Origin: Candidatus Nomurabacteria bacterium
GTDB lineage: Bacteria > Patescibacteriota > Minisyncoccia > Phycocordibacterales > UBA5272
Assembly: GCA_028286645.1 (NCBI GenBank)
Contig: JAQBRF010000004.1
Coordinates: forward strand, 18,830 to 82,829
Length of the DNA: 64,000 nucleotides
Direction: 5' to 3'
Shown here: piece after piece, positions 11,443 to 43,124 of the stretch
Layout: every line of letters begins with the position of its first letter
Position numbering within the stretch: the first letter of the stretch is position 1
Notes under the pieces: generated by a model
What the model was told of the DNA's origin: nothing
Seen by the model: only the letters and a program-made list of their open reading frames with translations
The model's database searches: none
Program-made: the position numbers and the translations under genes

Positions 11443-11516
11443 ACTCTTCTCCTTGAGGGTTGTGCAATCATTAAAACACTACAATTCTTTTGTGAAAAAG
11501 TCAATCTTCTAACTTA

Positions 11517-13923: not shown

Positions 13924-14070
13924 GTTCGAAAGCCCGGACAGAAGCTGATATGGCCAGGTCTCTGCAAGCGAAAGCTGCAGAGACCTTTTATTTGACATAA
14001 GAAAAACAAGAGCGTAAATTAAAATAGTACGCTCTTGTTTTTCCTAGAGCCCTAACTCAAGGAGGATATT

Positions 14071-14319: not shown

Positions 14320-14435
14320 TAAGCGGAACTTGTACTCCGTGGCTCCGCAAGGAGCCACGGTTTTTCTTTGACCTAGAAGTTGCTTTGTAGTACAGTTATA
14401 AAGATTTATTGTTCAACTAACCAGAGGAAACTCAA

Positions 14436-14747: not shown

Positions 14748-14865
14748 TACCACACTGGGAGCAAGGAAAGCTCCCAGGTTTTTTATTTTTATATTGACTG
14801 GACATATTTAAGGCGCTAAAGTTATAAAGATTGGTCTTTTTGCAATGAACCTTTGTGGAGGATTT

Positions 14866-15420
14866 ATGACGAAACCAATTCTTACGATTGTCCCGCAGCT
14901 CGAAGTAAGAAGGGGTGGAGGAGAACCTCCTCCGCTCCTTGATAAACAGCTTCGGGTGGATGAGACTCCGCCAGCGGCGGCTGATCAAGCCGAGGCAGAG
15001 CCTGATTTCCAAGGAAAGGCAACATCAAGCCCTGACGACGTCCAATCCTTGGGCGATGTTTCAGAGGCCAGTGATGCAGAATCGGCTCAGGTTTCTCCCG
15101 GCGAATTGTGGCGAAAAGATCGCGAGGAAGCATGGAGACTTTACCAGGAAAGTAAAGCGCGCATCAGCCTATCGGATCCGATAAAGTCAGGGATTCCAGC
15201 GGAGTCGGTGATCATTTATTGGACTGACTCGGAGCCGCGGACAAAAATGACCGGCGAAGATGTGATCAATGAAAGTCTCGAGCGCGTAGAAGGAGATCGG
15301 TTCGTAGAGATCAGCACTACAGGAGAATCGAAAAAAGGTGTATGCTTCATTTTCACCTATTCTCACCGGTTCCCGTTTTTCAGGTTTTTCGCACCTGAGG
15401 TCTGCGAAATAAAAAAATAA
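14866..15420 (+). CDS. Hypothetical acidic low-complexity protein, high-GC cassette
   Basis: GGAGGAtttATG. Terminator CCGCGGCTGGAGGGCCGCGG + T-run at 15431-15462. Confidence 0.4.
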   Translation: MTKPILTIVPQLEVRRGGGEPPPLLDKQLRVDETPPAAADQAEAEPDFQGKATSSPDDVQSLGDVSEASDAESAQVSPGELWRKDREEAWRLYQESKARISLSDPIKSGIPAESVIIYWTDSEPRTKMTGEDVINESLERVEGDRFVEISTTGESKKGVCFIFTYSHRFPFFRFFAPEVCEIKK

Positions 15421-15554
15421 GACAGAAATTCCGCGGCTGGAGGGCCGCGGTTTTATTTTTTCACATATCCTTTTTTGAATGTTGATGGTTATAGTATATT
15501 AATTAAGTACTGTTCTGTTTTTTCTTAACCGTTTCATTTTTAATAGAAGAGAAA

Positions 15555-15740
15555 ATGTCGGCAATAAAGAGACCTAAGTCCCCAGTTTTTCCTGAGGGAG
15601 ACGTGCTTCATATCGACGGACGGCTCCTCCAAACGCATAATGGACACAAAGCTACGCCTCCCCCAAAAGGAGGGGATGATTTTCCTGCTGTGCGAGTTTC
15701 TCCAAGCGGTCAAAGTGTCTACCGTTTCCGCCCGAAATGA
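15555..15740 (+). CDS. Hypothetical small protein, high-GC cassette
   Basis: Followed by the terminator GTGCGCAGCGCC-tac-GGCGCTGCGCAC + T7 at 15751-15786. Confidence 0.3.
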   Translation: MSAIKRPKSPVFPEGDVLHIDGRLLQTHNGHKATPPPKGGDDFPAVRVSPSGQSVYRFRPK

Positions 15741-15822
15741 AAGAGGCCAAGTGCGCAGCGCCTACGGCGCTGCGCACTTTTTTTAACTCGCCCTTAAATA
15801 CTCATTTGATATACTAACAACT

Positions 15823-25542: not shown

Positions 25543-28500
25543 TTACTTCAACTCTTTTATCTCATCTATTACAATTGTCTTCTCGCCATTTCTTGTTGAA
25601 ACTTTTCCGCGCACAACAAGGGGGCAATCCATAATTATTTTTTTCTTAAAGTTTTTATAAGTTTCTGGAAATACTGCTACTTCAATGCATCCGGAGTAGT
25701 CGCGTAATTTGAGCAAAGCCATCTGATCTCCCTTTTTAGTATTCGTTGTTTTTATATTTTCTATAATCACTGCGATTGAAACTTCTTTTCGATCAGGAAT
25801 AGAATGATGTATTTTATCAATGTCTATTCCGCGAGCTATAATTTTTTCTTTCCATGGATCTAGTGGGAAGCCCGAAACGAAAAGTCCTAATAAATCTTTT
25901 TCCCATTTTAATTTCTGCTCATTACTTACCGGAGGGGCAGGCTTCATGTTAAAAGAAGAAGCTCCGTCAAATGCAAATAAGCTGTCCTGCATAATATTAT
26001 CTTTCACTACATGCTTATGGAATTCCAAGATGCTTTCCATGTTGGCAAGTATCTGTCCGCGTTCTGCGAATTCATCTAATGCTCCGCACATAGTGAGAGC
26101 TTCTAATGATTTTTTATTTAAATTCTTATGGGTGACTCGGCGTATAAAGTCTTCGAATGATTTGTATGGGCCGCTTTTTACTCTTTCTTCCATTATAGCG
26201 TCTCCAATATCTACTCCTAAGTTTTTAATAGTGTGAAGTCCAAATCTTATTTCTTCCGTACCTTCATCATTTTTAACAATGCTAAATCCACCCTCGCTTT
26301 TATTTATATTCGGTGGAAGAACTGTAATATTCATTCTTTTACATTCAGAAACAATTTCGGCGATCTTTTCTGTGTCTCCGCTTTCGTTACTCATGATAGA
26401 AGTCATGTAGGCAACAGGGAAGTTTGCTTTCATATATGCCGTTTGATACGCTACTCGTCCATAACTTGCAGCATGGGCTTTGTTAAATCCGTAAGCAGCA
26501 AAAGGCTCGATCAGCCTCCAGAGTTCCTGGGCCTTTTTAGTCGAAAGTCCGTGCTCGACGAATCCTGCCAAAAGCTTTTCTTTCTGATCTTGCATTTCTG
26601 CAGGGATTTTCTTTCCCATGGCTTTTCTTAGCTTATCTGCTTCAAGCCACGAATATCCTGCCAAGTGAATGGCGATAAGCATCACGTCATCTTGGTACAC
26701 GATTACTCCGAAAGATTGATCAAGGATTGGTTCAAGTCTTGGATCAACGAAACTTATTAACTTAGGATCATGTTTTCTTGCGATGTATTCCGGAATCATT
26801 TCAAGAGGTCCGGGACGATAAAGTGCGACCATGGCATTAATATCAAAAATTGTAGTTGGCTTTAATTCCTTTAAAAACTTTGTCATGCCAGAACCATTTA
26901 ATTGGAATAACCCCATCGTTTCTCCTCGCGAAAGCATTTCAAAAGTTTTTTTATCATCAAGCGGAATTTCTTCGATATCAATATCTATATTGTATTTATC
27001 TTTTGCTATTTTAATCGCGTCTCCTAAAATTGTAAGATTTCTAATTCCGAGGAAGTCAAATTTAAGAAGCCCCGCATCTTCAATGTTATACATATCATAC
27101 TGTGTGATAATTTTTCCTCCTTTGGGATCTTTTTGAATCGGAGTCCATTCCCAAAGTGCAGCAGGGGAGATAACAGTGCCGGCTGCGTGTACAGAAATAT
27201 GCCTGGCACATCCTTCCACCTTTTGTGCCATGTCTAATATTATCTGAGCCTCTCGATCGTTGTCGTACATTTCTTTAAGTTCGGGAACTTCATTTAATGC
27301 TCCGGCAATTGTTACAGGGAAGCCTTGCTTCGGCATAGGTATGAGCTTACTTATCCGGTCTCCCACCATGTATGGGAATTTCATCGCGCGTGCAACGTCG
27401 CGAACCGCACCGCGCGCCATCATAGTACCGAATGTTCCTATTTGGGCCACATTATCCATTCCGTATTTGCTTCTTACATAATCAATAACCTCGTCTCGCC
27501 TAGTATCTGAAAAGTCCATGTCTATGTCTGGTGCCGATGGGCGTTCTGGATTTAAGAATCTTTCAAACGGGAGTTTATAAGCTAGCGGGTCGCATTTGGT
27601 AATACGAAGAAGATAAGTTGTAAGAGACCCTGCAACAGACCCTCGAATATTTGTAAGAATACCATGATCTCGGGCGTATCTAAGCAGATCATATACTACT
27701 AAAAAGTATGGCGAATATCCTTTATCGGCGATGACTTTTAATTCATAGTCGAGTCTGGTTTTTACTTCATCTGTTAATTCCATGCAGCGAACTTCCAAGC
27801 CGCCATATGCAAGAGCACGCACGTCTTCGTTATATGTTTTCTTTGTGGTGATGTTTGGAAATACCCACGAACCAAGCGGGATTTCCAAATTAACCATTTC
27901 TGCAATTTTATTAGTATTTTCTATGGCTTCAGGAATATCAGAAAATTGTTTACTTGCAGCATCATGGCTTATAAATGCATAAGATTCTTTGTTAAACATA
28001 TGTGCATACTCTTCTTCCGAAGTGGAAGTTCCTTGGATTAAGAAAAGTGTTTTATGCGCACTTATATCCTGATCACTTAAATAATGTGTATTCCATGTAG
28101 CGACAAGGGGAGTGCCGGTGGCGTGCGCGAGTTCGATTGTTTTCCTCCTCATATTGTCCGCATGCTCCATATTTCTTTGAGGATTCAGTTCAAGGTAAAA
28201 GTCATTACCAAAATTTTTCTTATAAAAATCTAATCTATCCTCAGCCTCCTTTGTGTTCTTTATAAGAACATTACTGATGTCTCCCCACATGCCGCCGGAT
28301 AAAACAATGAGGCCTTCCTTATGTGCTAATAGGACCTCATCTTTTAAAATTGGATGAAGAGGGTTGTCTATGTTTACTAATGATGTAATTCTCATTAAGT
28401 TTTTGTAACCCATCATATCTTTTGCTATAAGTACGATTTGGAATGTTCTTTCTTTGTATAAGATAGAAAACTCTACCCCTATAATCGGCTTTATGTTTTT

Positions 28501-28665
28501 CTTTTTACAAGCCTTAAAGAATTCAATGGTCCCATACATATTATTGTAGTCCGTAATAGCCAGAGAATTCATGTCCAAATCTTTTGCTTTTTGTACAAGG
28601 GCATCTATCTTCGGAAGTGATTTTAATAGGGAATAATGAGTATGGTTACGGAGGTGGGTTAACAT
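25543..28665 (-). CDS. dnaE: DNA polymerase III alpha subunit (PHP + polymerase core)
   Basis: PHP N-terminus HLRNHTHYSLL. DnaE core motifs. 1040 aa. Confidence 0.85.
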   Translation of the reverse strand: MLTHLRNHTHYSLLKSLPKIDALVQKAKDLDMNSLAITDYNNMYGTIEFFKACKKKNIKPIIGVEFSILYKERTFQIVLIAKDMMGYKNLMRITSLVNIDNPLHPILKDEVLLAHKEGLIVLSGGMWGDISNVLIKNTKEAEDRLDFYKKNFGNDFYLELNPQRNMEHADNMRRKTIELAHATGTPLVATWNTHYLSDQDISAHKTLFLIQGTSTSEEEYAHMFNKESYAFISHDAASKQFSDIPEAIENTNKIAEMVNLEIPLGSWVFPNITTKKTYNEDVRALAYGGLEVRCMELTDEVKTRLDYELKVIADKGYSPYFLVVYDLLRYARDHGILTNIRGSVAGSLTTYLLRITKCDPLAYKLPFERFLNPERPSAPDIDMDFSDTRRDEVIDYVRSKYGMDNVAQIGTFGTMMARGAVRDVARAMKFPYMVGDRISKLIPMPKQGFPVTIAGALNEVPELKEMYDNDREAQIILDMAQKVEGCARHISVHAAGTVISPAALWEWTPIQKDPKGGKIITQYDMYNIEDAGLLKFDFLGIRNLTILGDAIKIAKDKYNIDIDIEEIPLDDKKTFEMLSRGETMGLFQLNGSGMTKFLKELKPTTIFDINAMVALYRPGPLEMIPEYIARKHDPKLISFVDPRLEPILDQSFGVIVYQDDVMLIAIHLAGYSWLEADKLRKAMGKKIPAEMQDQKEKLLAGFVEHGLSTKKAQELWRLIEPFAAYGFNKAHAASYGRVAYQTAYMKANFPVAYMTSIMSNESGDTEKIAEIVSECKRMNITVLPPNINKSEGGFSIVKNDEGTEEIRFGLHTIKNLGVDIGDAIMEERVKSGPYKSFEDFIRRVTHKNLNKKSLEALTMCGALDEFAERGQILANMESILEFHKHVVKDNIMQDSLFAFDGASSFNMKPAPPVSNEQKLKWEKDLLGLFVSGFPLDPWKEKIIARGIDIDKIHHSIPDRKEVSIAVIIENIKTTNTKKGDQMALLKLRDYSGCIEVAVFPETYKNFKKKIIMDCPLVVRGKVSTRNGEKTIVIDEIKELK

Positions 28666-28765
28666 TGGTAAATTTTAACATATTAATCCCTATGTATTAT
28701 TAATCGTTAAAATAGAGGAATAGGTTGATTTCTATGATTGCCAACATTATTGTAAACTCTTAATA

Positions 28766-29404
28766 ATGAAAAAACTTGCCTTTAGTAGAGAGCTTAAAAA
28801 AATAGGAGTGATCGGAGTAGATGAAGTAGGAAGAGGGCCGCTTGCGGGACCTGTTACAGTATGCGCCACATATTTAATGGATCCATTATTAGTAAAAAAA
28901 GATCTTTTTCTTGATACCGTTAGAGATTCTAAAAAGATTAATAAAGCTTTACGCAATAGCATATATCAAACTATTAGAAATAAACGAACAAATATTTACC
29001 TAGTAAAATATGCTATAAAATCTAAAAGTGCTTCTTACATTGATACTCACGGAATTAGTAAAGCTATCCGGAATTGTGTCAAAGAGGTTATTTTAGATTT
29101 AAAGAAACAAGGAGTACCTGTATATAGCATTAAAGTTAACTTAGATGCGGGTTTAAAAGTGGCAATAGAAGGAGTAGTTGAAGAGAGCTATATAAAAGGT
29201 GATGAGAGGTATGTAGAGATAGCTCTTGCTTCTATAATTGCTAAGGAGTATAGAGATTCTTATATGAAAAGAATTGCTAAGGAGCATAGTAATTACTCTT
29301 GGGAAAGAAATGTAGGATATGGAACAAAAGAGCATAGAGAAGCGATTACAAAGTTTGGACCCTGCAAACATCATAGAAACAGTTTCCTAAAGGCATTTAA
29401 ATAG
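28766..29404 (+). CDS. rnhB: Ribonuclease HII
   Basis: GVDEVGRGPLAGPV motif. Confidence 0.8.
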   Translation: MKKLAFSRELKKIGVIGVDEVGRGPLAGPVTVCATYLMDPLLVKKDLFLDTVRDSKKINKALRNSIYQTIRNKRTNIYLVKYAIKSKSASYIDTHGISKAIRNCVKEVILDLKKQGVPVYSIKVNLDAGLKVAIEGVVEESYIKGDERYVEIALASIIAKEYRDSYMKRIAKEHSNYSWERNVGYGTKEHREAITKFGPCKHHRNSFLKAFK

Positions 29405-29639
29405 TTAGGTATTCCGGATAGTTAATAAATGTGACAGAAAAAAGGGCTTAAAAACAGATTATTAGCTCTTAGAATTAAATATTTAAAATAAAGGATGAAT
29501 TCAGCGGTTTTCTGCAATTTTTTAGCCATTGATTTAACTAAAAATCCTTTTTGCCATAAGGTTTTTTTAAGCGTCCTTTATCCCCAGTTTTTTCACATAT
29601 TGTGCACAGAATTTTATATACTTTGAATAAGTTAAATTC

Positions 29640-32600
29640 ATGAAAAAAGGTATTAAAAAATGTGGAGCAAAAGTTTGGGTTATTTTTTTTACATTTATTT
29701 TAATTTCATCTTTTTCTGCTAATAGCTCAGTTCATGCAGCCGAAAGCAAAATTCTCAATTTCCCGGTCTATCCATTACAAAGTGTAATAAGATTTATTTC
29801 ATTTAAAACATTTTCTTTGTATTCTGTTTCATCGCATGCATATGCCCTAGCTCATAACCTGCCACAATTTGCGCCAACGAAACTTTCAGCCATACCATCG
29901 ATTAAAACTGACGAGTTATCGCCTCTTTTAAATATAGGAAATAGTGCCAGCCAAAATACTGTCATATTATCAGATGCTGTCAATGAGCTTGGCTGCGAGT
30001 TAGTTAAATTTATTAGGATTAATTTATGCGCAGGTGAGAGTAACTTTGTGACGCCGAAATTAGCGATGAATAAAGTAGATAATAATGATTTAGTTATCGA
30101 TTCTGCTATTCCACGGCAAATTGCTATAGTAGGAGAAGAACTTCATTCGCCGCTTATTGAGTCAATAAAAAACTTTGCTTTAAATTTAAATACTGCAACT
30201 GTGCCAAAGCAGCAACCTTATGAAGAAATCCAAAATGATATTCCAGATCTCAAATTTAACTTTCCGCGCTTAGCAGAGTTTAGCCTTCTTCCTTTTAAGC
30301 AATATTCATCATTTGCAACAGGAGATAATAAAGCAAGCGCTCAAGGAATTTCGGTTCCAGTGAAGAAGAGTACACTGCCATTTTTAGACAGATTATCACT
30401 TTCTGTTTTCTGTAAAATAAAATCTTTATCAGGAGTCGTTGATGAAAACAGATGCAGTTATGATTCGCTTGCGGGAAACTTTTTAATAAACAATTTAGCA
30501 AATTTAAATGATGGCAATACTCAGCCATCAACACTAAATAGTAGTGGGGCCACTTCAACCTCAACAGGCTCCTCTAACACTCCTCAAGACACTTTTACAA
30601 ACTCTGGAAATATTTCAAAACCGGTTTATATAACTCAGTATCTCACTAAGTATATTACTCTTGCGGGTTCTCCGGGTCCTAAAGGTCCTTCTGGTGTAGA
30701 TGGAAAAGATGGCCTAGATGGAATGAGTGGTCAGAATGGAGCTAACTCACAAGGAGGATTCGGAGGATTTATTAATCCATCAAGTTCTTATGTTGCGCCG
30801 ACTCCGTATGTGGCGCAAAGCCTTGTGGGGATTTCTACTATTGGATATTTGCGTGATACTACGATTGAGTATGCGAAGTTTAATTATGGTACAGCTAATA
30901 ATCTAAGCCTGATAAGCCCTACTGTAGATAACGGCGTGTTTAACGGAACGAATATATTTAATGGAGGCGTACGATTTAATGATAATGTAGACATAAACAT
31001 CCTAACTGCCACCTCGAGTAATTTCCTAAATTCAAGCACGACAAATTCGTTTGCAAATAATTTTTCTGCAGTAAATTCTATACTTGGGGATGCAATCATA
31101 ACAAATGCGAATGTAACTAATTCGACTACGACAAATCAGTCTACAACTAATTTAAATCTTACAAACGGTACTACAAGTAATCAATTTATTAATAATCTTG
31201 CGGTAATTAATTCCACAACGACAAATGCGAGCACCACAAATAGCTACATAAGTAATTTATTAAATGATAATAGTACCACTACCAACTTGGTAGTTACAAA
31301 TGCAAGCACAACGAATGCGACTACTACGAATTCTTTTATTTCTAAATTATGGTCCACTCTTGCTAACATTACTGATCTAATAATTGGCAATGCCACAACA
31401 ACTAATCTATTTGCTGCGAATGCGACTTCCACCAACTTCTTTTCAACTCTTGCCCGCATCACGGGTCTCACAGTAGATAATTCAGTTACAACTAATGCAA
31501 CGACTACAAATGGCTACATATCTAATTTAACTAATGATAATGGAAATATCGGAAATCTTGTCGTAACTAATGCAAGCACAACTAATGGCACCACGACAAA
31601 TAGTTACATAGCAAATTTAGCAAATACAAACGCGGTGATTACCAATGCTACGACCACAAATTCTTTCATTGCACGATTGTGGTCCACTTTAGGCGATATA
31701 ACAGGATTAAATACAGTTAATTTGACCGCTACGAATGCTACTAGTACAAATTTCTTTTCAACCCTTGCCCGCATCACGGGTCTTACTGTCGATAATTCCG
31801 TTACGACTAATGCAACCACAACAAATAGTTTTATTGCAAATCTGACTGCAGATAATGCTGTAATTAACAATATCAATTTTGGCAGCGCTTCATCTACAAA
31901 CTCGACGTCGACAAATGGTTTTATTGCAAACCTAACGATGAATAACGGAACATCAACGAACTTCTTTACTCAAAACCTTTCCGTTGGAAATACAAATGTT
32001 AGCGGCAATCAAACAATTAATGGTACGTTCACTGTTTTAGGTACTACCACACTCGGAGCAGCAACGACAATTGTGGGGAATATACTCTTGGGGACAAGTA
32101 CCTCGAATTTTATAACAGTAAATGGCCTATTTAATTCTCATCTGGTTCCCGCGCAAAATATTACATACGATCTGGGTTCCCCATCATTTTATTATAGGAC
32201 TTTATATGTTGATACCATTACCGCAAATACCGTTTCTGCTGTTAGCTCTACGATCAATGGAACAACAAATAGTTCATTTTCAATAAACGCAGATAATGTT
32301 TCCGCAGACGCAGAAGATTCTACCCTTGTCTTTTTTAGAGGATTAGTTACTCCGAATGCAGTTATTAGGTGGAATTCCATTTCGAAGAGATTGGAGGCGA
32401 ATATGTCTATTAATGTTATGAATGAAACTCCTGTAACCGGTTCCACCACTTTTTCAGTACAGGGAGGGGCTGGTCAGGGAACAACACCGTTATTTAAGCT
32501 GCTAGATAATTCTGAGAACACTCTTTCATACTTTGACCAAAATGGCTCATTAGGAATTGGGACTAGTACGATCACCTCAGGGGCGAAGGTGGATGTATGG

Positions 32601-35600
32601 GGTAATTTAAATGTAGGAACTTCTTCAACCCCGACACTGTTTGCTAACACGGCCACAGGAAATGTGGGGATTGGGACTTCAACTCCTGGCTCTACTCTCA
32701 CAGTTGCGGGCACTGGGTTATTTACCAGCAACCTTTCAACTCTTGGCACTTTAGGGGTCAGCGGACAGACTACCTTAACAACAGCATCCTCAACTGCATT
32801 TACTGCCACGACTCTCTTTTCCACAACGGGGACTATTGCAAACTTAATAAATACTAATGCAACCTCATCTAATTTATTTGCAAGTCTTGGGACGCTGGGA
32901 GCCTTAACGGTAACTGGTCAAACTGTTTTATCTAACGCTTCTACCACCAACCTAACAGTCTCTGGAAACCTATACAGTACCAATCAAATTACCACTACAG
33001 AAACAGTAACTAACTCTTCCACTACCAACCAAACAACTTCTGGTAACACCTACTTCTCCGGATTAACCGCAGGTTCTATCCCATTTATTGGTGGAGGTGG
33101 CTTACTAAGCCAGAACAATGCAAATCTATTCTGGGACAATACGAATGCGAGGTTAGGGGTGGGGACGACGACGCCGGGAGCACTTCTAACCGTTTCTTCT
33201 TCTACCGCAACGGGAACTACTGGATTATTTAGCATAGCGACTTCATCAAATCCTCTGCTTAGTGTGCTGGCAAATGGAATTATTCAATTGAAAACTGGCA
33301 GGGTTAATAATGGAGTGCAATTTATAGGTGGAGTGGGAGGAAGTTTAGAATTTACTAACTCTGCAAGCGGCGTATTTTCTGCACAAGGTAATGGTCTAGG
33401 ACAAGTGACATGGAATGGAACAGAAGTAGATTTAGGAAATAACTTCGGCGTAGCGGGAAGATTCAATTGTGTGTCGGGAAGCTGCCGAACAAGCTTTAAC
33501 AGTACAAATTTTCCTGTAGCCACGGCGCAAAACTTTTTCAAGTCTAATGCAGATGGAAACATCGGAATGATCATTGCTCAGAATTCTGTATCACAAACAG
33601 GAGACTTATTTCAGTTAACAGATTCAGCCGGGACATCTGTACTCTCTACATTTTCAGCATCTGGCAGTTTAGGTATCGGTTCCACCACTCCCGGCTCCAA
33701 ACTGTCTATAACCGGAACAAGCGGAGCCACTACGCCGCTATTTACTGTCGCTTCCTCTACAAACTCTGTAATATTTAATGTGCTTGCTAATGGAAATGTA
33801 GGAATTGGTACTACAACACCAGATCAGAAACTTGTCGTTGAGGGGAATAACCCAGCAATTGCGATTAACAACACCGGATCTGGAAGTGGAAATTTCCCTA
33901 TATTTATATTAAGACATGCTGGCGCAGACAAATCATATTTATATTGGGACAATGCAAATAGTTTTACAAAATTTAGTTCTGCAGGAGCCTTGCGGTTTGA
34001 TACAAATGGCTTAGGAAATACAAATATGACTCTTCTTGCTAATGGCAACCTCGGCATCGGTACCACCACTCCCTCCACCAAACTCTCCGTTGCCGGCAAT
34101 GGCCTCTTCGACGGAGTTGTAACAGCATCTAACTTCGTAGCAACGTCGACCGCACCTTCCACATTTACTAATGCAACTATTACAAATGCTTCTACCACAA
34201 ATACTACCGGGACAGGACTTACATTTACTAATGGATTATTCTTAAATTCGCTTGCTTCTAACGGTACATTAAATATTACAGGTCAAACTGTCCTAGCTAA
34301 CGCTTCCACCACTAACCTCTCAATCTCAGGAAATCTTTATGCACCTAATTTTCTTGGAACAACAGGATCCTTTAGTACTTTAAGCGCAACGAATGCTTCT
34401 ACTACTAACTTTACTAATTCAAACAATTCATACTTCTCCGCCCTCACCGCAGGCTCCATCCCATTTATTGGTGGAGGTGGACTACTAAGCCAGAACAATG
34501 CAAACCTATTCTGGGACAATACGAATGCGAGGTTAGGGGTGGGGACTACGACACCCATAGCTAAGCTAAGCGTATCCGATGCAACTAATTATGGAAACGT
34601 AACTGCTGATCAAACAAAGTTCGGAAGCTATTATTTATATTCTCCCCAAGCTGTTATTACAGGAACTTCTACTGCTCCAGCAGGAACGTATATTGGAGTT
34701 AATAGCGATTTAAATGGAAGCAATATTTCACTAACCTCTTCTAGCAATTTCATAGGGACTAATTTAAGTTCTATTAAAGGGTCTGTGTCAGGCTCTCCCG
34801 TGGTTAATCTAAATCTTAATGCAAATACGGGACTGGGCTTTGTATCTACTGCTGCAATCGAAGGAAATGCAAATGTAACTCCCGTTTATATCAGCGGAGA
34901 TCAATTATTCTTTAATTCCTATGGAGGACAGTTTACAAACACTAGTGGAAATGGAGTATCTACGACTCCAACATCAAATATATATGGTATTAATGCATCA
35001 TCAAATAGTAATTTGGCGAGAGGATCTCATTATGGAGGTAATTTTATCGCTGCAGGAACAGCGTCAAGTAATTATGGGGTAAGAGTTGCAAGCGTATCCG
35101 GAGCTGGAAGTAATTATGGATTAATGATTGATACTGTGGCGGCATCTTCTACTAACTATGCGCTTTATTCAGGTGCATTAGCGCAAAGCTATTTTGCGGG
35201 CAACGTCGGAATTGGCACGCTGTCTCCTACGGGGAAGTTTTCGATTATCACTTCACCAAGCGGTATGATAGACGCTCCAGCGATGGATATACTATCGACT
35301 CATGCTATCGGTTCTGTTACGACCTCGGGGGTGCGTACGTTTACTATGGCAAGTTCGACATATAATCCTTCAGCCACTCTTAGTAATAGTAGCGTTTCAG
35401 GAACTAATGTAATTATTGCAAACGGAAACACTCAGAATATTAATTTAAACAACTTCACATTAAGTGACGTAACAGGAGTTGGAGCGAGAAACGCTCTAAC
35501 AGTAAATGGCTATACTGCAACTCTTACGGGTAGTCCAGTAATAAATGATACAAATCCTGATGGCCTAGGCCAAGTGATAACAGTTGCGGGTTTTAGTGGA

Positions 35601-38600
35601 AACGTTAGCGTAACTCCAGCTGTTACTAGTCTTGTAAATATTGGGAATTTCAATTCCATAGCAGGTGAGTTCAATAATACTAGTTCTGATGGCGGTTCTA
35701 ATTTATCTTCTCTTGCCTATGGCATCAAAGTATCTAACACGGCTACTCTTGCTACGGCTAACGCTAGTGATCTTTATGGCGGATTCTTTAATGTTTCTGG
35801 TACAGCCACTAATGCCTACGGCCTTAAGGTAAATGTAATCGGGTCTACAAATAATCATGGTATGCTCATAAGCTCAGTTTCAGGAGGAGCTAGCAATTAT
35901 GGTTTGCGTATCGACACCGTGGCCGCATCCTCTACTAACTATGCGCTTTATTCAGGTGCATTAGCGCAAAGCTATTTTTCAGGCAATCTTGGTATCGGTA
36001 CAACTTCTCCAACTGAAAAACTCTCCGTTGCCGGCAACGGCCTATTTGACGGAGTAGTAACAGCATCAAATTTCTTTGCGACTTCCACCACCCCATCAAC
36101 ATTTATAAATGCTTCCACTACTAACCTAACAGTCTCAGGAAACCTATATAGTACTAACCAAATTACAACCACAGAAACAGTAACTAATTCTTCCACTACC
36201 AACCAAACAACTTCTGGTAACTCCTACTTCTCTGCTTTAACTTCCGGCTCTATCCCATTCATTGGTGCAGGAGGATTACTATCCCAGAACAACTCTAATC
36301 TCTTCTGGGACAACACGAATGCGAGGTTAGGGGTGGGAACGAGTACGCCAGTTAACGCTTTAACTGTGGTGGGTAATGGATTATTAACAGGAAGCTTAAC
36401 AGTAGGGAACGGAAGTACTAATGCCATAGTAGATATTAATGGTCTTTCATCAAATAGTGCTTTGCTTAGATTCTTGCGAAGCGGTACGGAAGCAGGAAGA
36501 ATAACATTTGCGAATAGTGCAGATATGACTTTCCAACTTGGTTCTAGTCCAGCAGAAATGATGAGAATTACTTCTGCGGGTAACATTGGAATCGGTTCCA
36601 CCACTCCTGGATCAAAGCTTTCTGTTACTGGTGCTTCTGGCAGTATTGCACCATTATTTACAGTCGCCTCATCAACGAACTCTGTACTATTTAATGTATT
36701 AGCGAATGGAAATGTTGGGATAGGAACGACCACCCCCCTTGCTGCTCTCCATGTCACAACCCAAGTGGCCGATATTGCTTACTTTAATAGCTCCATAAGT
36801 CCGCTGGGAAGATTATTTATAGCAGCACGTGGCGGACCAAATGGAGAGATAGAAATAGGAAACCATGATGGAGCTTACAGATTGCTGGACGTTCAGGGTT
36901 CGATACTTACATTTGGTGTGAGTGGTACTGAAAAAATGAGGATTGACGCATCTGGTAATATTGGTATCGGATCGACAACTCCAACGGCGAAATTCACAGT
37001 GTCCGGAGATAATGGAGCCGTGTCATCAGACAGCTTGGTGGTTTTCGGAGATAATTTAAATTCTGTAACAGGAGCTACCACAGCGAAACTTACAATTGGT
37101 AATATAGACGGTAATAGTGAACTTTTGATTGGGCAAGACGGAACACATAACTTGGTAAATGCTTGGATATATAATGCGACAGCGGCTAGTGGTTACGGAC
37201 TTATCGCAGGATATGGCGGAAATAATAATATAGTTCTCCAAAGGGACGGAGGAAATGTTGGAATAGGAGCTACCACTACTCCATCTGCTCGTCTTTCTAT
37301 AAAAGGAATAGGCACTACTACTGGTATCAATTTTCAGACTACTAACTCAAGCAATGTTCCGTTGTTTAGTATTTTAGATAATGGAAACGTGGGGATTGGA
37401 ACTTCTAGTCCAATAGCAAATTTACAAATTGGAAACACTACATCAGCCTCAACCGCTTCCCCAGTCACTTTATCACTTGGAGGAACCTTCAGTTCTGTCG
37501 CTGGGGCTAACTTGAAATTAAAATTATTCGATAGCGGAGCAAACGTCTACGGTCTCGGAGTATCAGCGAATTCTCTCGATGTATCTTCAGCGGCGGCATT
37601 AAATTTTTATACAAACGCAAGTACCACTCCAAGCATGACAGTGGCTGCGACAGGAAATGTTGGAGTTGGAACAGGCGCTCCGGTTTCGACCTTAAACGTA
37701 AATCAGTTAGCTGGAACTACCAAAGGCATATCCATTACAGGAGATGAAACATTTGCATCAGGTAATGGGTCTATAACATCTGGAGTGAGAATTGCCCTTG
37801 GGGTATCAAGAGCTAATAATCGTCAATTATGGCTTGGAGATATTGCCGCTTATGGAAGCTCGACAGCGGGACTTTTTAGATATAACACAGGGCAAACAGG
37901 CTGGGGAGGATTTGATGTGGTGAGTGGCGATGGTTCTAGTAGATTTCTTACAGTTGCGGGTAGTGACACTTCTAATGTTGGAATAGGATACAACGGATCA
38001 CCTGTTGACCCGACTTTATACACAGGAAAGTTAAATGTATTTTCTTATAACGATTCAGCTGCTTCTACTACCTTAAACTTAAGACATTTCGGAACAGCAA
38101 GTGGAAATTATTTAGATATAAAAAATAGCGCTGGAACCTTGCTGGCGACATTTACAAATGCTGGAAATATGGGAATAGGTGTAACATCTCCGACCTCGCT
38201 TCTATCGATTGCGTCTACTACAGCAAGTGGAGCCACAGGATTATTCTCAGTAGCCAGCTCATCTTCTATTTTTAATATACTTGCTAATGGAAACGTAGGG
38301 ATAGGTACAACAACTTCGATTCAAAAACTTGATGTAAATAGTTCCACATTTTTAGCAAACTCCGTTAATGGAGCATACGTAACAAGTGATAGTGCAGTAA
38401 CTAACAGCGCATATCTGGCTTCCAATGCTTATTATAATGGATCTAGTTGGCAGAAACCTTTTGCTCTTAAATCGGCCATATTTGGTTCAGCTGGTTCAGG
38501 AGCGTCGAAGGGGTTTTATATATATGGATCTGAAAGCACAACAGCCGGCACAATCTCAGACTTTGAAGAAAGGTTTAAGGTCCTTACTACAGGAAATGTA

Positions 38601-41600
38601 ATTATGGGAGTGGGTGCTGGAGGAGGCAACGTCGGCGTCGGCACCACCACCCCCTCCACTAAACTCTCCGTTGCCGGCAATGGCCTATTTGACGGAGTGG
38701 TAACAGCATCAAACTTTGTTGCTACTTCAACTACTCCTTCTACATTTATAAATGCTTCTACTACTAACCATACAAACTCTGGTAACAATTACTTCTCTGC
38801 TTTAACTTCCGGCTCCATCCCATTTATTGGTGCAGGCGGCTTACTAAGCCAGAACAATGCTAATCTGTTTTGGGACAACACTAATGGGAGGTTAGGGGTG
38901 GGGACGACAACGCCAGGATCCCTCCTTACTGTCTCATCTTCCACAGCAACAGGGACTACTGACCTCTTCTCGGTTTCTACATCATCACCAATATTTAACA
39001 TACTTGCGAATGGCAACATCGGAATCGGGACAACAACCCCGACAGACAAACTTTTTGTTTCTGGTACGTTTTCAGCGGGAACAAGTACGCTAAATAACCT
39101 TATTGTTACAAATACTAGCACATCAACATTTGCTGGTGCGGTACAAATTACAAAATCTACAGTGGGACCTACTACCGTATTAACATTGAAAAATGGCCAA
39201 TTTAATGTAGGAGATACTTCAGATATACTTTTCTCTCACGGCAACTTGCAAGCTTTTTCAAAAATTAGCTCATCACTTCCCGGTAGTAATCAGACCCATC
39301 TAGCCTTCTACACTAGTTCAAATACAAACTCTTTAGTTGAAGCGATGAGGATTGATGGAAATGGAAAGGTGGGAATAGGAACATCAAGCCCAGCTAATTT
39401 ACTTCACATATCTGGAAATGGCGATAGTCGAGTGATGTCTGAAACAACAGGGGCAGATACTGTAGGCACTGCGGGTTTTGTTATGAAAGGAGGAGGAACA
39501 AACGCACAATGGCAAATATTTACTAACCGTTCAGATCTTGCCGGAGCTGCAGATAATTTTGCCATTCGTAAAAATGCCGGCACGACAGGAGTAAAGTTGG
39601 TCATTCAAGATAACGGAAATGTCGGTATTGGAACAACCACACCTATTTATTCCTTAGATGTAGTCGGTAATATTCGTACGGCTGGTGCTGCTTCTGGTTT
39701 CATTATGAATAACCGAGCGACAAATCAGACTTCAGCACAATGGTATAGTCCAACAGCTGGAGAAACAAGGCTCTTTGACCATGTTGCAGGATTGGATCGA
39801 TTTACTATAAATTCGTCCGGAAGCGTAGGTATTGGAACTACTACCCCTGGTAACACTTTAAGCGTTGAAGGTTCGGGTAACGTAGCTAGATTCGGCACAT
39901 CGGCAAATGCATTTTCATTCATTCAGGTAGATTCTAATAATGCAACAATTAAGAATGTATTCGGAACGGATATTAGCGGTACTCCCACAGGATTCTTAGG
40001 AACTCTTACCAATCATGATCTCATTCTTCGTACAAATAATACAGAAAAGGTACGTATAACAACTGGTGGAAATGTCGGTATTGGAGTAAGCCCCGCTCTC
40101 GCAAGACTACAAGTAAACGATGGTGGCGGTACTGCTGCGAGTGAAATTTTAAGTTTGCAAACAGGTTACGCAGCTAACAGCGCCCAAAAAGCCTTAACCT
40201 GGAGAGATGGGGTAAATATTACAGGCCAAATAGACACAAGATACGATGGCACATCAATCGATATGGTCTTTGGACATCTTTATAATTCTGGTTATAACAC
40301 AACGGATAGAATGGTGATTAAAGGTACAGGAAATGTGGGTATCGGAACGCTTGCGCCGTTTAGTAGACTACATGTAGCCCAAGATGTAACACAATATTCT
40401 ACATCGGGAACTTTTGCTCAATTGGAAGTTACGGGTGGAACAAATATTAACCAAAGACTGGCTATTGGATATAACACATCTACGAACGTCGGTTTTATTC
40501 AAGCTATAATAAATGGAGTTTCATTTCAGCCGCTTGCTCTCCAGCCGCTGGGTGGTAATGTCGGTATTGCGACATCAACCCCAGGACAAGCTCTTGCTGT
40601 AGTTGGTACCATCCAGCAATCTGCCGCAAAGAGCTGTGCTCTTTCATCGAATGCCTCAGGAGATATCATTTGTACGTCTGACGAGCGTTTGAAAGATATT
40701 GCTGGAATATATAATGGAGGCATCGGACAATTGCTTTCGATTAATCCAATCAGATTCAATTATAAAAATGAATCATACCAGCACGTTGGATTCTCTGCGC
40801 AAAATATCGCATCGGTTCTTCCAGAAGGTGCTCCAATCCAATCTAATGGATTCTATGGATTAGACTCAAATGCAGTACTTGCTCTTACACTTAATTCCGT
40901 GAAAGATATAGCTCATAGAATCGATTTCTCAAATGCTCCAAACTCTGCATCCCTTATTATAGATAACTTAGGAGGAATCATGGCTAAAAACTTTATGACT
41001 GACACCACTTCGTCAGTTGCAGAAAGGTTCCCAGCAGAAGAAGCGGTGGATGTAGGAACTGTAGTGGCATTTGGAGACTCATCATATTCATTTAATGACA
41101 TTCATGCATCATCTACTGACACATACAGCATGTCAGGTGTTAGAAAGGCTCGCACTCAAGGAGAAGCAATTGGTGTGGTCACATCAAATGCCGGACTTAT
41201 AACAGGAACATCAAGCAATGGCGGCGTACCGGTGGTATTTTCTGGACGCACTGTCGTTCAAGTTACGAATGAATATGGCCCAATTCAAAAAGGAGATTAT
41301 TTAACACTTTCTACTACTACTCCAGGAAAAGCTACGAAGATGTCAGGAGAAGGACAATCTCTCGGTGTAGCGGTATCCGCTGATAATGGTTCTGGCAGAA
41401 TCCTTGTAGTACTTAATACTGGATATCAAAAGGTTGATACTAACAGCCGGGCAATTTCTACAAGCGGAATGCTTACCACTGGAAACTTGGATCTTAATGC
41501 CAATGGCGTAGCGATTTTGAATATTAAATCTCTTGCGTCCGCAAACGGCACTTGGTCTATCAATGAAGATGGGCGTATCATCGCAAAGATTCTTTGTCTG

Positions 41601-41894
41601 GAAGATGTATGTATTGATAAAACACAGCTTACAAATCTTCTTAATAATTCTGGCCAAGGCGGAGCTCCTGCTTCTATTCAAAACTCTACTTCAACTCCAT
41701 CAGGGGATGTATATGCAAATGATGTAAATCAGGGAACTCTATATTCCTCATCCACTCCTTCAGGCACGCATAGCGGAATGGTAGCCGGCACTTCTACGGA
41801 GGCCATGCCAGCAATTGATACAGCCCCAATTGTAAGTGAACCGGCAAGCGGGGGTGTATCAGTTGCGCCCACAGATGGGGCAGTAACACCATAA
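29640..41894 (+). CDS. Giant secreted fibre-like surface protein (4084 aa). Signal peptide, collagen-like Gly-X-Y stretch, many N/T/S-rich repeats (GNVGIGTTTP-type), C-terminal intramolecular chaperone/peptidase S74-like domain
   Basis: A single uninterrupted ORF. Signal peptide MKKGIKKCGAKVWVIFFTFILISSFSANSSVHA. Collagen-like GSPGPKGPSGVDGKDGLDGMSGQNGANSQGG. Repeats LLSQNNANLFWDNTNARLGVGTTTP recur x4 or more. C-terminal SDERLKDI...NPIRFNYKNESYQHVGFSAQNIASVLPE matches the endosialidase/tail-fibre auto-chaperone. Confidence 0.85.
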   Translation: MKKGIKKCGAKVWVIFFTFILISSFSANSSVHAAESKILNFPVYPLQSVIRFISFKTFSLYSVSSHAYALAHNLPQFAPTKLSAIPSIKTDELSPLLNIGNSASQNTVILSDAVNELGCELVKFIRINLCAGESNFVTPKLAMNKVDNNDLVIDSAIPRQIAIVGEELHSPLIESIKNFALNLNTATVPKQQPYEEIQNDIPDLKFNFPRLAEFSLLPFKQYSSFATGDNKASAQGISVPVKKSTLPFLDRLSLSVFCKIKSLSGVVDENRCSYDSLAGNFLINNLANLNDGNTQPSTLNSSGATSTSTGSSNTPQDTFTNSGNISKPVYITQYLTKYITLAGSPGPKGPSGVDGKDGLDGMSGQNGANSQGGFGGFINPSSSYVAPTPYVAQSLVGISTIGYLRDTTIEYAKFNYGTANNLSLISPTVDNGVFNGTNIFNGGVRFNDNVDINILTATSSNFLNSSTTNSFANNFSAVNSILGDAIITNANVTNSTTTNQSTTNLNLTNGTTSNQFINNLAVINSTTTNASTTNSYISNLLNDNSTTTNLVVTNASTTNATTTNSFISKLWSTLANITDLIIGNATTTNLFAANATSTNFFSTLARITGLTVDNSVTTNATTTNGYISNLTNDNGNIGNLVVTNASTTNGTTTNSYIANLANTNAVITNATTTNSFIARLWSTLGDITGLNTVNLTATNATSTNFFSTLARITGLTVDNSVTTNATTTNSFIANLTADNAVINNINFGSASSTNSTSTNGFIANLTMNNGTSTNFFTQNLSVGNTNVSGNQTINGTFTVLGTTTLGAATTIVGNILLGTSTSNFITVNGLFNSHLVPAQNITYDLGSPSFYYRTLYVDTITANTVSAVSSTINGTTNSSFSINADNVSADAEDSTLVFFRGLVTPNAVIRWNSISKRLEANMSINVMNETPVTGSTTFSVQGGAGQGTTPLFKLLDNSENTLSYFDQNGSLGIGTSTITSGAKVDVWGNLNVGTSSTPTLFANTATGNVGIGTSTPGSTLTVAGTGLFTSNLSTLGTLGVSGQTTLTTASSTAFTATTLFSTTGTIANLINTNATSSNLFASLGTLGALTVTGQTVLSNASTTNLTVSGNLYSTNQITTTETVTNSSTTNQTTSGNTYFSGLTAGSIPFIGGGGLLSQNNANLFWDNTNARLGVGTTTPGALLTVSSSTATGTTGLFSIATSSNPLLSVLANGIIQLKTGRVNNGVQFIGGVGGSLEFTNSASGVFSAQGNGLGQVTWNGTEVDLGNNFGVAGRFNCVSGSCRTSFNSTNFPVATAQNFFKSNADGNIGMIIAQNSVSQTGDLFQLTDSAGTSVLSTFSASGSLGIGSTTPGSKLSITGTSGATTPLFTVASSTNSVIFNVLANGNVGIGTTTPDQKLVVEGNNPAIAINNTGSGSGNFPIFILRHAGADKSYLYWDNANSFTKFSSAGALRFDTNGLGNTNMTLLANGNLGIGTTTPSTKLSVAGNGLFDGVVTASNFVATSTAPSTFTNATITNASTTNTTGTGLTFTNGLFLNSLASNGTLNITGQTVLANASTTNLSISGNLYAPNFLGTTGSFSTLSATNASTTNFTNSNNSYFSALTAGSIPFIGGGGLLSQNNANLFWDNTNARLGVGTTTPIAKLSVSDATNYGNVTADQTKFGSYYLYSPQAVITGTSTAPAGTYIGVNSDLNGSNISLTSSSNFIGTNLSSIKGSVSGSPVVNLNLNANTGLGFVSTAAIEGNANVTPVYISGDQLFFNSYGGQFTNTSGNGVSTTPTSNIYGINASSNSNLARGSHYGGNFIAAGTASSNYGVRVASVSGAGSNYGLMIDTVAASSTNYALYSGALAQSYFAGNVGIGTLSPTGKFSIITSPSGMIDAPAMDILSTHAIGSVTTSGVRTFTMASSTYNPSATLSNSSVSGTNVIIANGNTQNINLNNFTLSDVTGVGARNALTVNGYTATLTGSPVINDTNPDGLGQVITVAGFSGNVSVTPAVTSLVNIGNFNSIAGEFNNTSSDGGSNLSSLAYGIKVSNTATLATANASDLYGGFFNVSGTATNAYGLKVNVIGSTNNHGMLISSVSGGASNYGLRIDTVAASSTNYALYSGALAQSYFSGNLGIGTTSPTEKLSVAGNGLFDGVVTASNFFATSTTPSTFINASTTNLTVSGNLYSTNQITTTETVTNSSTTNQTTSGNSYFSALTSGSIPFIGAGGLLSQNNSNLFWDNTNARLGVGTSTPVNALTVVGNGLLTGSLTVGNGSTNAIVDINGLSSNSALLRFLRSGTEAGRITFANSADMTFQLGSSPAEMMRITSAGNIGIGSTTPGSKLSVTGASGSIAPLFTVASSTNSVLFNVLANGNVGIGTTTPLAALHVTTQVADIAYFNSSISPLGRLFIAARGGPNGEIEIGNHDGAYRLLDVQGSILTFGVSGTEKMRIDASGNIGIGSTTPTAKFTVSGDNGAVSSDSLVVFGDNLNSVTGATTAKLTIGNIDGNSELLIGQDGTHNLVNAWIYNATAASGYGLIAGYGGNNNIVLQRDGGNVGIGATTTPSARLSIKGIGTTTGINFQTTNSSNVPLFSILDNGNVGIGTSSPIANLQIGNTTSASTASPVTLSLGGTFSSVAGANLKLKLFDSGANVYGLGVSANSLDVSSAAALNFYTNASTTPSMTVAATGNVGVGTGAPVSTLNVNQLAGTTKGISITGDETFASGNGSITSGVRIALGVSRANNRQLWLGDIAAYGSSTAGLFRYNTGQTGWGGFDVVSGDGSSRFLTVAGSDTSNVGIGYNGSPVDPTLYTGKLNVFSYNDSAASTTLNLRHFGTASGNYLDIKNSAGTLLATFTNAGNMGIGVTSPTSLLSIASTTASGATGLFSVASSSSIFNILANGNVGIGTTTSIQKLDVNSSTFLANSVNGAYVTSDSAVTNSAYLASNAYYNGSSWQKPFALKSAIFGSAGSGASKGFYIYGSESTTAGTISDFEERFKVLTTGNVIMGVGAGGGNVGVGTTTPSTKLSVAGNGLFDGVVTASNFVATSTTPSTFINASTTNHTNSGNNYFSALTSGSIPFIGAGGLLSQNNANLFWDNTNGRLGVGTTTPGSLLTVSSSTATGTTDLFSVSTSSPIFNILANGNIGIGTTTPTDKLFVSGTFSAGTSTLNNLIVTNTSTSTFAGAVQITKSTVGPTTVLTLKNGQFNVGDTSDILFSHGNLQAFSKISSSLPGSNQTHLAFYTSSNTNSLVEAMRIDGNGKVGIGTSSPANLLHISGNGDSRVMSETTGADTVGTAGFVMKGGGTNAQWQIFTNRSDLAGAADNFAIRKNAGTTGVKLVIQDNGNVGIGTTTPIYSLDVVGNIRTAGAASGFIMNNRATNQTSAQWYSPTAGETRLFDHVAGLDRFTINSSGSVGIGTTTPGNTLSVEGSGNVARFGTSANAFSFIQVDSNNATIKNVFGTDISGTPTGFLGTLTNHDLILRTNNTEKVRITTGGNVGIGVSPALARLQVNDGGGTAASEILSLQTGYAANSAQKALTWRDGVNITGQIDTRYDGTSIDMVFGHLYNSGYNTTDRMVIKGTGNVGIGTLAPFSRLHVAQDVTQYSTSGTFAQLEVTGGTNINQRLAIGYNTSTNVGFIQAIINGVSFQPLALQPLGGNVGIATSTPGQALAVVGTIQQSAAKSCALSSNASGDIICTSDERLKDIAGIYNGGIGQLLSINPIRFNYKNESYQHVGFSAQNIASVLPEGAPIQSNGFYGLDSNAVLALTLNSVKDIAHRIDFSNAPNSASLIIDNLGGIMAKNFMTDTTSSVAERFPAEEAVDVGTVVAFGDSSYSFNDIHASSTDTYSMSGVRKARTQGEAIGVVTSNAGLITGTSSNGGVPVVFSGRTVVQVTNEYGPIQKGDYLTLSTTTPGKATKMSGEGQSLGVAVSADNGSGRILVVLNTGYQKVDTNSRAISTSGMLTTGNLDLNANGVAILNIKSLASANGTWSINEDGRIIAKILCLEDVCIDKTQLTNLLNNSGQGGAPASIQNSTSTPSGDVYANDVNQGTLYSSSTPSGTHSGMVAGTSTEAMPAIDTAPIVSEPASGGVSVAPTDGAVTP

Positions 41895-42227: not shown

Positions 42228-43124
42228 ATGAGTACTCGCCACATCGCTCGAACCCTTGCATTACAAACACTCTTCGAACTTGATATGAAAGGGGAATTAG
42301 GTATTTCGCCAAATGAAGTAGAAGGTATAATTGCAAGAAATAGGGATGAGGCTGGAGAAGCGGTTAAGGATCTTTCGTTTGCGAAAGAGGTAGTAACTAA
42401 CGCTCTTTCTAGACGAATTACAATTGATGACATTATTACTCGGGCTGCGCCGGATTGGCCTCTTGATAAAATAGGAATAGTAGACAGAAATATTTTAAGG
42501 CTGGGATTAACTGAACTCCTTTTTGGCGATCGTACTCAGGTGCCTCCTAAAGTGGCTATAGATGAAGCTATAGAGCTTGCGAAAGCATTTGGAGGAGAAA
42601 CTTCCGGCCGATTTGTTAATGGAGTATTAGGGGCAATTTACAAAGAAATGGGTGAGCCAGAAAAAGGACAAACTACGAAAAGCAAGAAAGAGTATTTTGA
42701 AAGCGGAAAAAGAGAATTACTCGCTGGTGCCGTAGTATGCGCTCATCATAATAATAAAGTTCAAGTTGCTCTCGTTCATGACGTATTTGGGTATTGGACT
42801 TTGCCTAAGGGTCATATCGGTCTTGAAGAAAAAGGCGAAGAGGGGGTGGTAAGAGAAATAAAAAAAGAAATTGGATTATATATTACAGTTCTCGAAAAGC
42901 TAGGAGAGAATCAGTACATTGCCAATAAGCCTGATCAAGGGAAAGTAGTTAAGCATGTAAATTATTACCTGGCTACATCAGACTATACCGATCTTCAATT
43001 AGAAAAAAAGGGCGGACTAGACGAAGCGAAATGGTTTAGTGAGATAGATGCTGTAAATTTACGGGTTTATGATGACATAAAACCTCTTATAAGGAATGCT
43101 ATTGATAAGGTAAAAAATGTGTAA
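42228..43124 (+). CDS. nusB: NusB-like N-terminal domain fused to a C-terminal NUDIX hydrolase domain
   Basis: NusB-like residues 1-150 (ARTLALQTLFELD ... RFVNGVLGAI). Nudix box GHIGLEEKGEEGVVREIKKEIGL at residues about 195-220. Confidence 0.6.
   Translation: MSTRHIARTLALQTLFELDMKGELGISPNEVEGIIARNRDEAGEAVKDLSFAKEVVTNALSRRITIDDIITRAAPDWPLDKIGIVDRNILRLGLTELLFGDRTQVPPKVAIDEAIELAKAFGGETSGRFVNGVLGAIYKEMGEPEKGQTTKSKKEYFESGKRELLAGAVVCAHHNNKVQVALVHDVFGYWTLPKGHIGLEEKGEEGVVREIKKEIGLYITVLEKLGENQYIANKPDQGKVVKHVNYYLATSDYTDLQLEKKGGLDEAKWFSEIDAVNLRVYDDIKPLIRNAIDKVKNV

Follow-up and report, generated by a model that had tools for sequence, protein, structure and literature searches.

Direct repeats within a giant open reading frame

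The window analysed here is a 64,000-nt stretch of the genome of a Candidatus Nomurabacteria bacterium, which belongs to the candidate phyla radiation (CPR), taken from contig JAQBRF010000004.1 of assembly GCA_028286645.1. It contains one open reading frame (ORF) of 12.3 kb on the forward strand (29640-41894), termed the giant gene below, that runs without interruption for 4,084 codons and carries a series of DNA repeats, all of which lie within its limits. The product is deposited as MDB5260197.1 ('hypothetical protein JWN37_428') from a Candidatus Nomurabacteria metagenome-assembled genome (MAG). The neighbouring proteins are exact matches to MDB5260195, MDB5260196, MDB5260199 and MDB5260200 of the same MAG, on a contig of 514,133 nt. 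The features of the gene are itemized in Table 1.

Comparison of the ORF with itself by BLASTN (a 12.3-kb search) gave 14 pairs of direct repeats, with E-values between 9e-10 and 3e-79 that rule out a chance origin. In every pair the offset between the two members is divisible by three, and they are thus in frame. The members of a pair are 71-86% identical over lengths of 64-279 nt, and exact identity extends for 48, 41 and 33 nt in the three longest runs and for no more than 26 nt in the others. An earlier note on this DNA, made from the sequence without database searches, had described four groups of repeats as near-identical and almost perfect. All four are present close to where it placed them, but with these identities, and with exact runs of at most 48 nt, that wording was overstated.

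The main repeat had been placed at 33055-33190 and 34435-34570, and these are indeed in register with 86% identity. A third match also exists (84%), but lies at 38794-38929, a displacement of 11 nt. The peptide quoted for this repeat is encoded exactly by copies 1 and 2, while the copy at 38.8 kb has two substitutions. A fourth copy (36108-36349) had been overlooked, and with 32934-33175 it forms the best pair of all (86% over 242 nt). The stretch 35115-35215 is 83% identical to a partner whose true position is 35898-35998, 3 nt from that proposed. The string quoted for its roughly 50 bp of perfect identity falls inside a 48-nt exact repeat (35148-35195, identical to 35931-35978). The matches of 34060-34140 are located at 35998-36078 (79%) and 38641-38721 (89%), shifted by 12 and 9 nt respectively. 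The two tandem units of ~300 bp proposed for 31320-31810 are weak. At a lag of 315 nt the whole units are ~56% identical, and the sole part of this region reaching 79% is a match of 130 nt between 31413-31542 and 31728-31857. Tandem Repeats Finder found no array in the giant gene.

The main repeat family is a composite junction module in four copies, each built as block B, an ASTTN-type spacer and block A. Block A (GSIPFIGxGGLLSQNNxNLFWDNTNxRLGVGTTTP) is present in all four copies. Block B (GNxGIGTTTPSTKLSVAGNGLFDGVVTASNF..) is readily recognized in copies 2-4; that of copy 1 has diverged. The length of the spacer between B and A varies with the copy, being 0, +26 or +74 aa. The flanks are shared in different combinations: copies 1 and 3 have the spacer in common, copies 1 and 4 the segment after A, and copies 2, 3 and 4 block B. 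Copy 2 includes the 41-nt exact repeat (34506-34546, identical to 33126-33166). A pre-B segment, separate from the module, is common to 35100-35203 and 35886-35986. Successive A copies are spaced by 1380, 1794 and 2565 nt, with long and mutually dissimilar shaft segments in between.

Table 1. Features of the giant gene, in window coordinates
Feature	Position	Strand	Basis or remark
Giant ORF, 4,084 aa, MDB5260197.1	29640..41894	+	Between rnhB (28766-29404) and nusB-NUDIX (42228-43124)
Signal-peptide-like N-terminal segment (MKKGIKKCGAKVWVIFFTFILISSFSANSSVHA)	29640..29738	+	Read from sequence
Short collagen-like G-X-Y run, aa 343-369	30666..30746	+	Weak collagen match and sequence
Degenerate 'TTTN' repeat region, not a true tandem array	31413..31857	+	One DNA-level match, 79%, lag 315 nt
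Junction module copy 1: spacer NASTTNLTVSGNLYSTNQ..., block A aa 1127-1183 (GSIPFIGGGGLLSQNNANLFWDNTNARLGVGTTTP), downstream GALLTVSSSTATGTT common with copy 4	32934..33222	+	
Exact repeat of 33 nt, second copy at 36189-36221; end of the k=31 Logan contig at 33044	33015..33047	+	Exact-match comparison
Shaft unit (GIGSTTPGSKLS..FNVLANGNVGIGTTT), the GIGS unit, repeated at 36588-36736	33672..33820	+	Protein 88%, DNA 72%
Junction module copy 2: block B aa 1469-1511 (GNLGIGTTTPSTKLSVAGNGLFDGVVTASNFVATST...), long ASTTN spacer, block A aa 1587-1643	34044..34568	+	
Pre-B repeat, first copy (SNYGL.IDTVAASSTNYALYSGALAQSYF)	35100..35203	+	85% to 35886-35986; 48-nt exact run 35148-35195
Second pre-B copy, then junction module copy 3: block B aa 2115-2157, 26-aa spacer, block A aa 2185-2241	35886..36362	+	
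Junction module copy 4: block B aa 2996-3038 adjoining block A aa 3040-3096, then downstream segment of copy-1 type	38625..38961	+	
Region aa 3111-3359, homologous to the solved beta-helix fibre Bd2133	38970..39716	+	PDB 8OND, E 5e-8
Peptidase_S74 (intramolecular chaperone, autoprotease) domain	40677..40826	+	SDERLK motif starting at aa 3680

The repeated blocks encode peptides with 79-96% amino-acid identity, and non-synonymous divergence (dN) is 0.02-0.19. Synonymous divergence (dS) ranges from 0.26 to 1.1 in blocks A, B and pre-B and rises to 2.6 in other units. The mismatches are mostly located at third codon positions, and the dN/dS ratio of ~0.1 between copies indicates strong purifying selection on the peptide. 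Where two copies of A, B or pre-B have the same residue, they use the same codon at 54-75% of the sites, compared with 35-38% expected from the codon usage of the gene (P from <1e-5 to 0.015). This excess shows that the A, B and pre-B copies are true DNA paralogues. The similarity is thus found at the level of the DNA, as the earlier note had proposed, and not of the amino acids alone. In the GIGS shaft unit (33672-33820 compared with 36588-36736) codon sharing is at the level of chance with dS ~2.6, and this unit is an old duplicate conserved at the amino-acid level alone. Codon sharing is also at chance for 22 generic GNVGIGT motifs. These differences in dS and codon sharing indicate that the duplicates in the gene differ in age, with the A and B blocks youngest, yet far from recent.

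The gene product, its chromosomal setting and its relatives

The giant gene is predicted to encode a secreted, phage-tail-fibre-like protein resembling the mosaic adhesive trimer (MAT) fibres of Bdellovibrio. From its homologies the product is probably a trimeric surface fibre, and most likely serves as a long adhesive fibre by which the episymbiotic CPR cell attaches to its host. Extrapolation from the ~0.4 Å per residue of the Bd2133 tip (PMC10769870) would give a fibre length of the order of 0.15 µm. The protein contains 22 GN(V)GIGT motifs, and the shaft matches the PHROG tail-fibre families 9942 (E 2.5e-25) and 18345 (E 7.7e-18). The region similar to Bd2133 also matches PDB entries 8OJN (E 8e-6) and 8OML. 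Towards the C-terminus PF13884, Peptidase_S74, is matched at aa 3680-3729 with 28.3 bits against a cutoff of 22, and the catalytic-type SDxxxK motif is here SDERLK. Pfam and NCBIfam scans of ten sub-segments gave nothing significant besides S74 and the weak collagen match. The first 345 residues (29640-30674, +) have no homologue in a search of 5.8 billion proteins, and no match in Pfam, NCBIfam or PHROG, so that the presumed cell-anchoring end of the fibre is an orphan.

About 400 residues (aa 3681-4084; 40680-41891, +) lie beyond the putative S74 cleavage serine, and Ser, Thr, Pro and Gly are abundant in the last stretch of these. PHROG matches extend to around aa 3762 in this section, for which Pfam and NCBIfam give S74 alone. 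A typical released S74 chaperone is well below ~400 aa, although of the region here just 50 aa are delimited, by the Pfam match.

The genes flanking the giant gene are dnaE, rnhB, a nusB-NUDIX fusion, rnc, RNase J and an ABC ATPase. Such housekeeping neighbours place it on a cellular chromosome and not in a phage. No phage-type domains were found in the other ORFs of the window that were scanned, and structural phage genes are not adjacent to the giant gene. A virion tail fibre encoded within a phage or prophage was considered and rejected on the basis of the same neighbours. The 90% identity clusters of the giant protein and its neighbours are all singletons, from which no close strain has been sampled. 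Looked up by exact identity, the giant protein gave no contig on record as encoding it. Metagenome contigs searched with the C-terminal 685 aa contained no strain-level relatives; the best segments are 35-59% identical, and the longer matches reach at most 54%.

Some other features of the window were observed. In the gene immediately 3' of the giant gene (42228-43124, +) a NusB domain (aa 6-139) is fused to a NUDIX hydrolase domain (aa 168-289). A tRNA gene (62476-62821, -) has its anticodon loop split by a group I intron (RF00028, 70.8 bits, E 6e-16, 62521-62804). Only when this intron is removed or allowed does ARAGORN report any tRNA in the window. The identity of the tRNA varies with the splice sites chosen, being His(GUG) with the ARAGORN intron option, while other boundaries give Leu, Tyr or Thr anticodons. 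The reported Rfam 5' end of the intron overlaps the D-arm of the tRNA. Lastly, the section 10000-15800 has a G+C content of 0.46-0.47, compared with ~0.32-0.42 in neighbouring 2-kb windows. It contains short ORFs alone, on both strands, with no Pfam match among those scanned, and could be an island, decayed genes or non-coding sequence.

Block A is widespread. It occurs at 47 loci in species-representative genomes that include many CPR lineages, Bacteroidota, Kapabacteria, Marinamargulisbacteria, Fibrobacteria, Armatimonadota and Bdellovibrionales, in proteins ranging from 270 aa to >4,366 aa with 1-6 copies each. It is also found in 208 IMG/VR viral contigs. Of the 58 complete ORFs there, with a median length of 611 aa, 52 carry it once. 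Protein identity is 60-78% across phyla and in the viral contigs. Unlike these uncultivated viruses, cultured-phage GenBank records gave no match to the module by tblastn. Neither Pfam nor NCBIfam has a model for block A, and its sole match is PHROG 5906 (function unknown). A profile of B plus A matched 13,280 representative proteins at E<=1e-3. Among the best 150 matches from this search of a representative library, 29 are at least 3,000 aa in length, with a maximum of 6,621 aa, and some have 20-43 matched stretches. The giant relatives all come from this search, another protein homology tool having listed none above ~1,200 aa.

Internal repeats are also present in 13 other large homologues. 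All pairs are in frame in 11 of these 13 genes, as is almost every pair overall. Several homologues have much younger repeats, among them one from Dojkabacteria (L032, 7019-20116; 97.5% identity over 318 nt with an exact run of 212 nt) and one from Chitinophagia (L017, 3548-11437; 98% over 221 nt with an exact run of 200 nt). These two genes would be better candidates than the present one for ongoing recombination or assembly collapse. Of 131 modules, 78 have their nearest neighbour in the same protein, and mean identity is 67% within proteins compared with 44% between them. In the giant gene the module copies are 84-93% alike, while the best outside match is 73%. Such clustering by protein, taken with the repeats in the homologues, indicates that intragenic duplication or homogenisation has been recurrent in the evolution of the family. 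The present gene is an ordinary and rather diverged example of it.

Assembly across the repeats and their origin

An independent Logan contig (k=31, SRR13312974) contains rnhB together with 1,135 codons from the start of the giant gene, which then runs off the end. This contig is 100% identical to 26654-33044 of the window and stops at 33044. Logan contigs hold each 31-mer once by construction (PMC12424806). The first repeated 31-mer in the gene starts at 33015, so that 33044 is the final base of the last unique 31-mer and the break is explained to the base. All the repeated 31-mers in the window are found in the giant gene, barring those of a 48-nt palindromic hairpin in the group I intron (62640-62687). 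No k-mer is repeated in the window at k>=49. The suggestion that the repeats are points of mis-assembly is thus borne out at low k, the break occurring at the 33-nt repeat, but they are not classic sites of collapse for a modern multi-k assembler. Look-ups in Logan for the predicted downstream contig (36192 to the stop codon), and for contigs of nusB and rnc, found nothing on record.

Among the homologues at the 47 loci, 14 are truncated by the end of a contig. On contigs of at least 100 kb this applies to 4 of 21 homologues, where 0.3-0.7 would be expected (P ~0.0003-0.004). The Andersenbacteria homologue (L001 1-1174, GCA_021414205.1) is also truncated at the end of a 470-kb contig, and the fibre genes L001, L003, L008, L013 and L031 in other MAGs reach the ends of contigs of 100-470 kb. 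This suggests that such fibre genes quite generally cause contigs to break, and that too few of them are reported at full length. Repeat-driven fragmentation of giant genes has been documented (bioRxiv 10.1101/2023.11.21.568195).

The repeats are very probably old in-frame intragenic duplications of structural modules within one MAT-like or tail-fibre-like chromosomal gene, which probably encodes a trimeric surface fibre. In-frame duplication of these modules inside the gene would have left the DNA repeats, and patchy exchange between the copies possibly followed. Purifying selection on the peptide is mainly responsible for keeping the copies similar, and the junction modules separate the larger, dissimilar segments of the shaft. 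The exact cores of 33-48 nt are a little longer than the minimum of homology that RecA recombination is usually said to need, so that rare in-frame deletion or duplication of blocks of 460-1,913 aa is possible. Rare loss or gain of blocks in this way would be the probable route by which length has changed in the family over evolutionary time. The idea that the repeats can mediate in-frame changes of length stands to the extent that all the offsets are in frame, and any crossover would remain so; active variation is speculation.

Several points weigh against the explanation by old duplication in a trimeric fibre gene. At the incongruent sites of the four A copies, 7 group copies 1 and 2 against 3 and 4, 5 group 1 and 3 against 2 and 4, and 3 group 1 and 4 against 2 and 3. 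Gene conversion between copies is possible, but the spatial clustering of these sites is not significant (P = 0.12), making the evidence for exchange weak, and the flanks, shared in different combinations, would be explained equally well by serial duplication and by gene conversion. Strain-level relatives are absent from the databases, and the order and length of the gene are those of the assembled sequence. Since aa 1-345 have no detectable homologue, the anchoring end cannot be equated with the conserved, beta-rich N-terminal domain (~130 aa) of MAT proteins. The trimeric structure is deduced from homology, and an AlphaFold2 monomer of one module (aa 2086-2330), calculated from an alignment of 20 sequences, is uninformative, being mostly coil with a predicted local distance difference test score (pLDDT) of 60 and a predicted template modelling score (pTM) of 0.28.

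It is improbable that the gene is an active recombination or phase-variation hotspot, in which frequent RecA-mediated crossing-over switches the length or composition of the fibre within the population. The in-frame offsets, the B-to-A spacer of varying length and the cores of exact match measuring 48, 41 and 33 nt speak for such a hotspot, as does the clustering of copies by gene throughout the family, with some relatives having nearly identical copies from recurrent duplication or conversion. But frequent conversion would keep the copies nearly identical, whereas here 14-29% of positions are mismatched and dS has reached 0.26-1.1 in the main blocks. There is no tandem array or simple-sequence tract, and no recombinase, invertase or reverse transcriptase among the ORFs of the window scanned. 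Nor are there variants to compare, the gene being a singleton in its 90% cluster and its closest metagenome matches reaching at most 59%. The proposal in the earlier note of a phase-variation or recombination hotspot is therefore unsupported with copies that are 71-86% identical, and nothing indicates programmed or high-frequency variation. Diversity-generating retroelements (DGRs) often target fibre or adhesin genes, those of CPR bacteria included, and the repeats might be the template and variable repeats of such an element directed at the fibre. The chance of this is negligible, and the candidate was rejected: the mismatches fall mostly at third codon positions, their spectra have no adenine bias in either copy, and no reverse transcriptase domain was found in the ORFs of the window that were scanned.

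The giant ORF might alternatively be an assembly artefact, a chimera in which shared k-mers have linked several fibre genes or strains. A wrong join at in-frame repeats would leave the ORF intact, an assembly of the same organism at k=31 breaks exactly at the first repeat, and homologues are over-represented at contig ends (the 4 of 21 above, plus P0004), in keeping with the documented fragmentation of giant genes. Yet the substitutions and flanks are peculiar to each copy, so the copies have not been collapsed, and with no k-mer repeated at k>=49 the path through the gene is unambiguous for a multi-k or long-read assembler. The 4,084 codons are uninterrupted on a contig of 514 kb, the Logan contig agrees completely up to the repeat, and relatives of 3,000-6,600 aa with the same architecture are common. 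A chimera is thus doubtful, to about the same degree as a hotspot. It is still harder to regard the DNA similarity as merely a by-product of selection on the peptide, by convergence or constraint in the absence of shared DNA ancestry. The conservation of block A across phyla and viral contigs, the low dN/dS, and the GIGS unit and generic GNVGIGT motifs that are similar at the amino-acid level alone could all be accommodated in this way, but the codon sharing of the A, B and pre-B copies, and their exact runs of 33-48 nt, could not. There is finally an outside chance that the B plus A module is a portable in-frame recombination joint between phage fibres and cellular ones (of CPR, Bacteroidota and predatory bacteria). 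The 4,084-aa protein would then be a concatenation of at least four cassettes that could be deleted, duplicated or exchanged, possibly with infecting phages. If this were true, an ultrasmall episymbiont would have a recombinase-free means of adjusting its attachment fibre, both in length and in binding repertoire.

Comparison with known systems and significance

The members of the MAT family are described as fibres on the cell surface that have a conserved end at the N-terminus, a trimeric shaft and interchangeable tips (Caulton et al. 2024, PMC10769870), and 13 of 21 members end in S74 with SDxxxK (PMC10769870). The giant protein resembles the S74 subfamily of MAT fibres of Bdellovibrio bacteriovorus in its signal-peptide-like start and its predicted beta-helix shaft of 'xxIxxxGNxGIGTxxPxxxLxV' type matching Bd2133. 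It further shares with MAT fibres a Peptidase_S74 with SDxxxK towards the C-terminus, a chromosomal, non-phage gene and a mosaic modular build. It differs in being about four times longer (4,084 compared with ~1,000 aa) and in its host, a CPR bacterium and not a predator. A collagen-like stretch, a TTTN region, four B plus A modules and ~400 aa past the S74 serine further set it apart from MAT fibres as described (PMC10769870).

With the S74 tail fibres and tailspikes of phages (endosialidase K1F, the L-shaped tail fibre of T5; PHROGs 9942, 18345 and 5906) the giant protein has in common the S74 domain, the GNVGIGT shaft repeats and block A. Unlike those, the present gene is located amid dnaE, rnhB, nusB and rnc, and the viral proteins with block A are short and mostly single-copy. 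In T-even phages the distal tail-fibre and adhesin genes recombine at conserved motifs (those of gp37 and gp38), and this exchange, between genomes, has been shown experimentally. As in these genes, short conserved segments flank dissimilar ones in the giant gene and would provide in-frame homology for the swap or loss of modules; here, in contrast, the conserved segments recur inside a single gene, where exchange is inferred. The gene is also similar to the giant genes of West-Roberts et al. 2023 (bioRxiv 10.1101/2023.11.21.568195) in encoding a large extracellular repeat protein with internal repeats that break contigs. Those proteins (>30,000 aa) are far larger and have other domains, and the repeats here can be resolved at k>=49.

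The 33-nt repeat provides a base-exact record of how a fibre gene ends a k=31 contig, the value of which is mostly technical. Because the family is over-represented at the ends of MAG contigs, giant fibre genes are likely to be under-counted and truncated in short-read metagenomes. The analysis adds a very long CPR member to the MAT-like or tail-fibre-like fibre proteins, and a conserved junction motif of ~40 aa, lacking a Pfam or NCBIfam model, that is common to thousands of bacterial and viral fibre proteins. If fibres of this kind mediate host attachment in episymbiotic Patescibacteria, then their modular growth would bear on host range.

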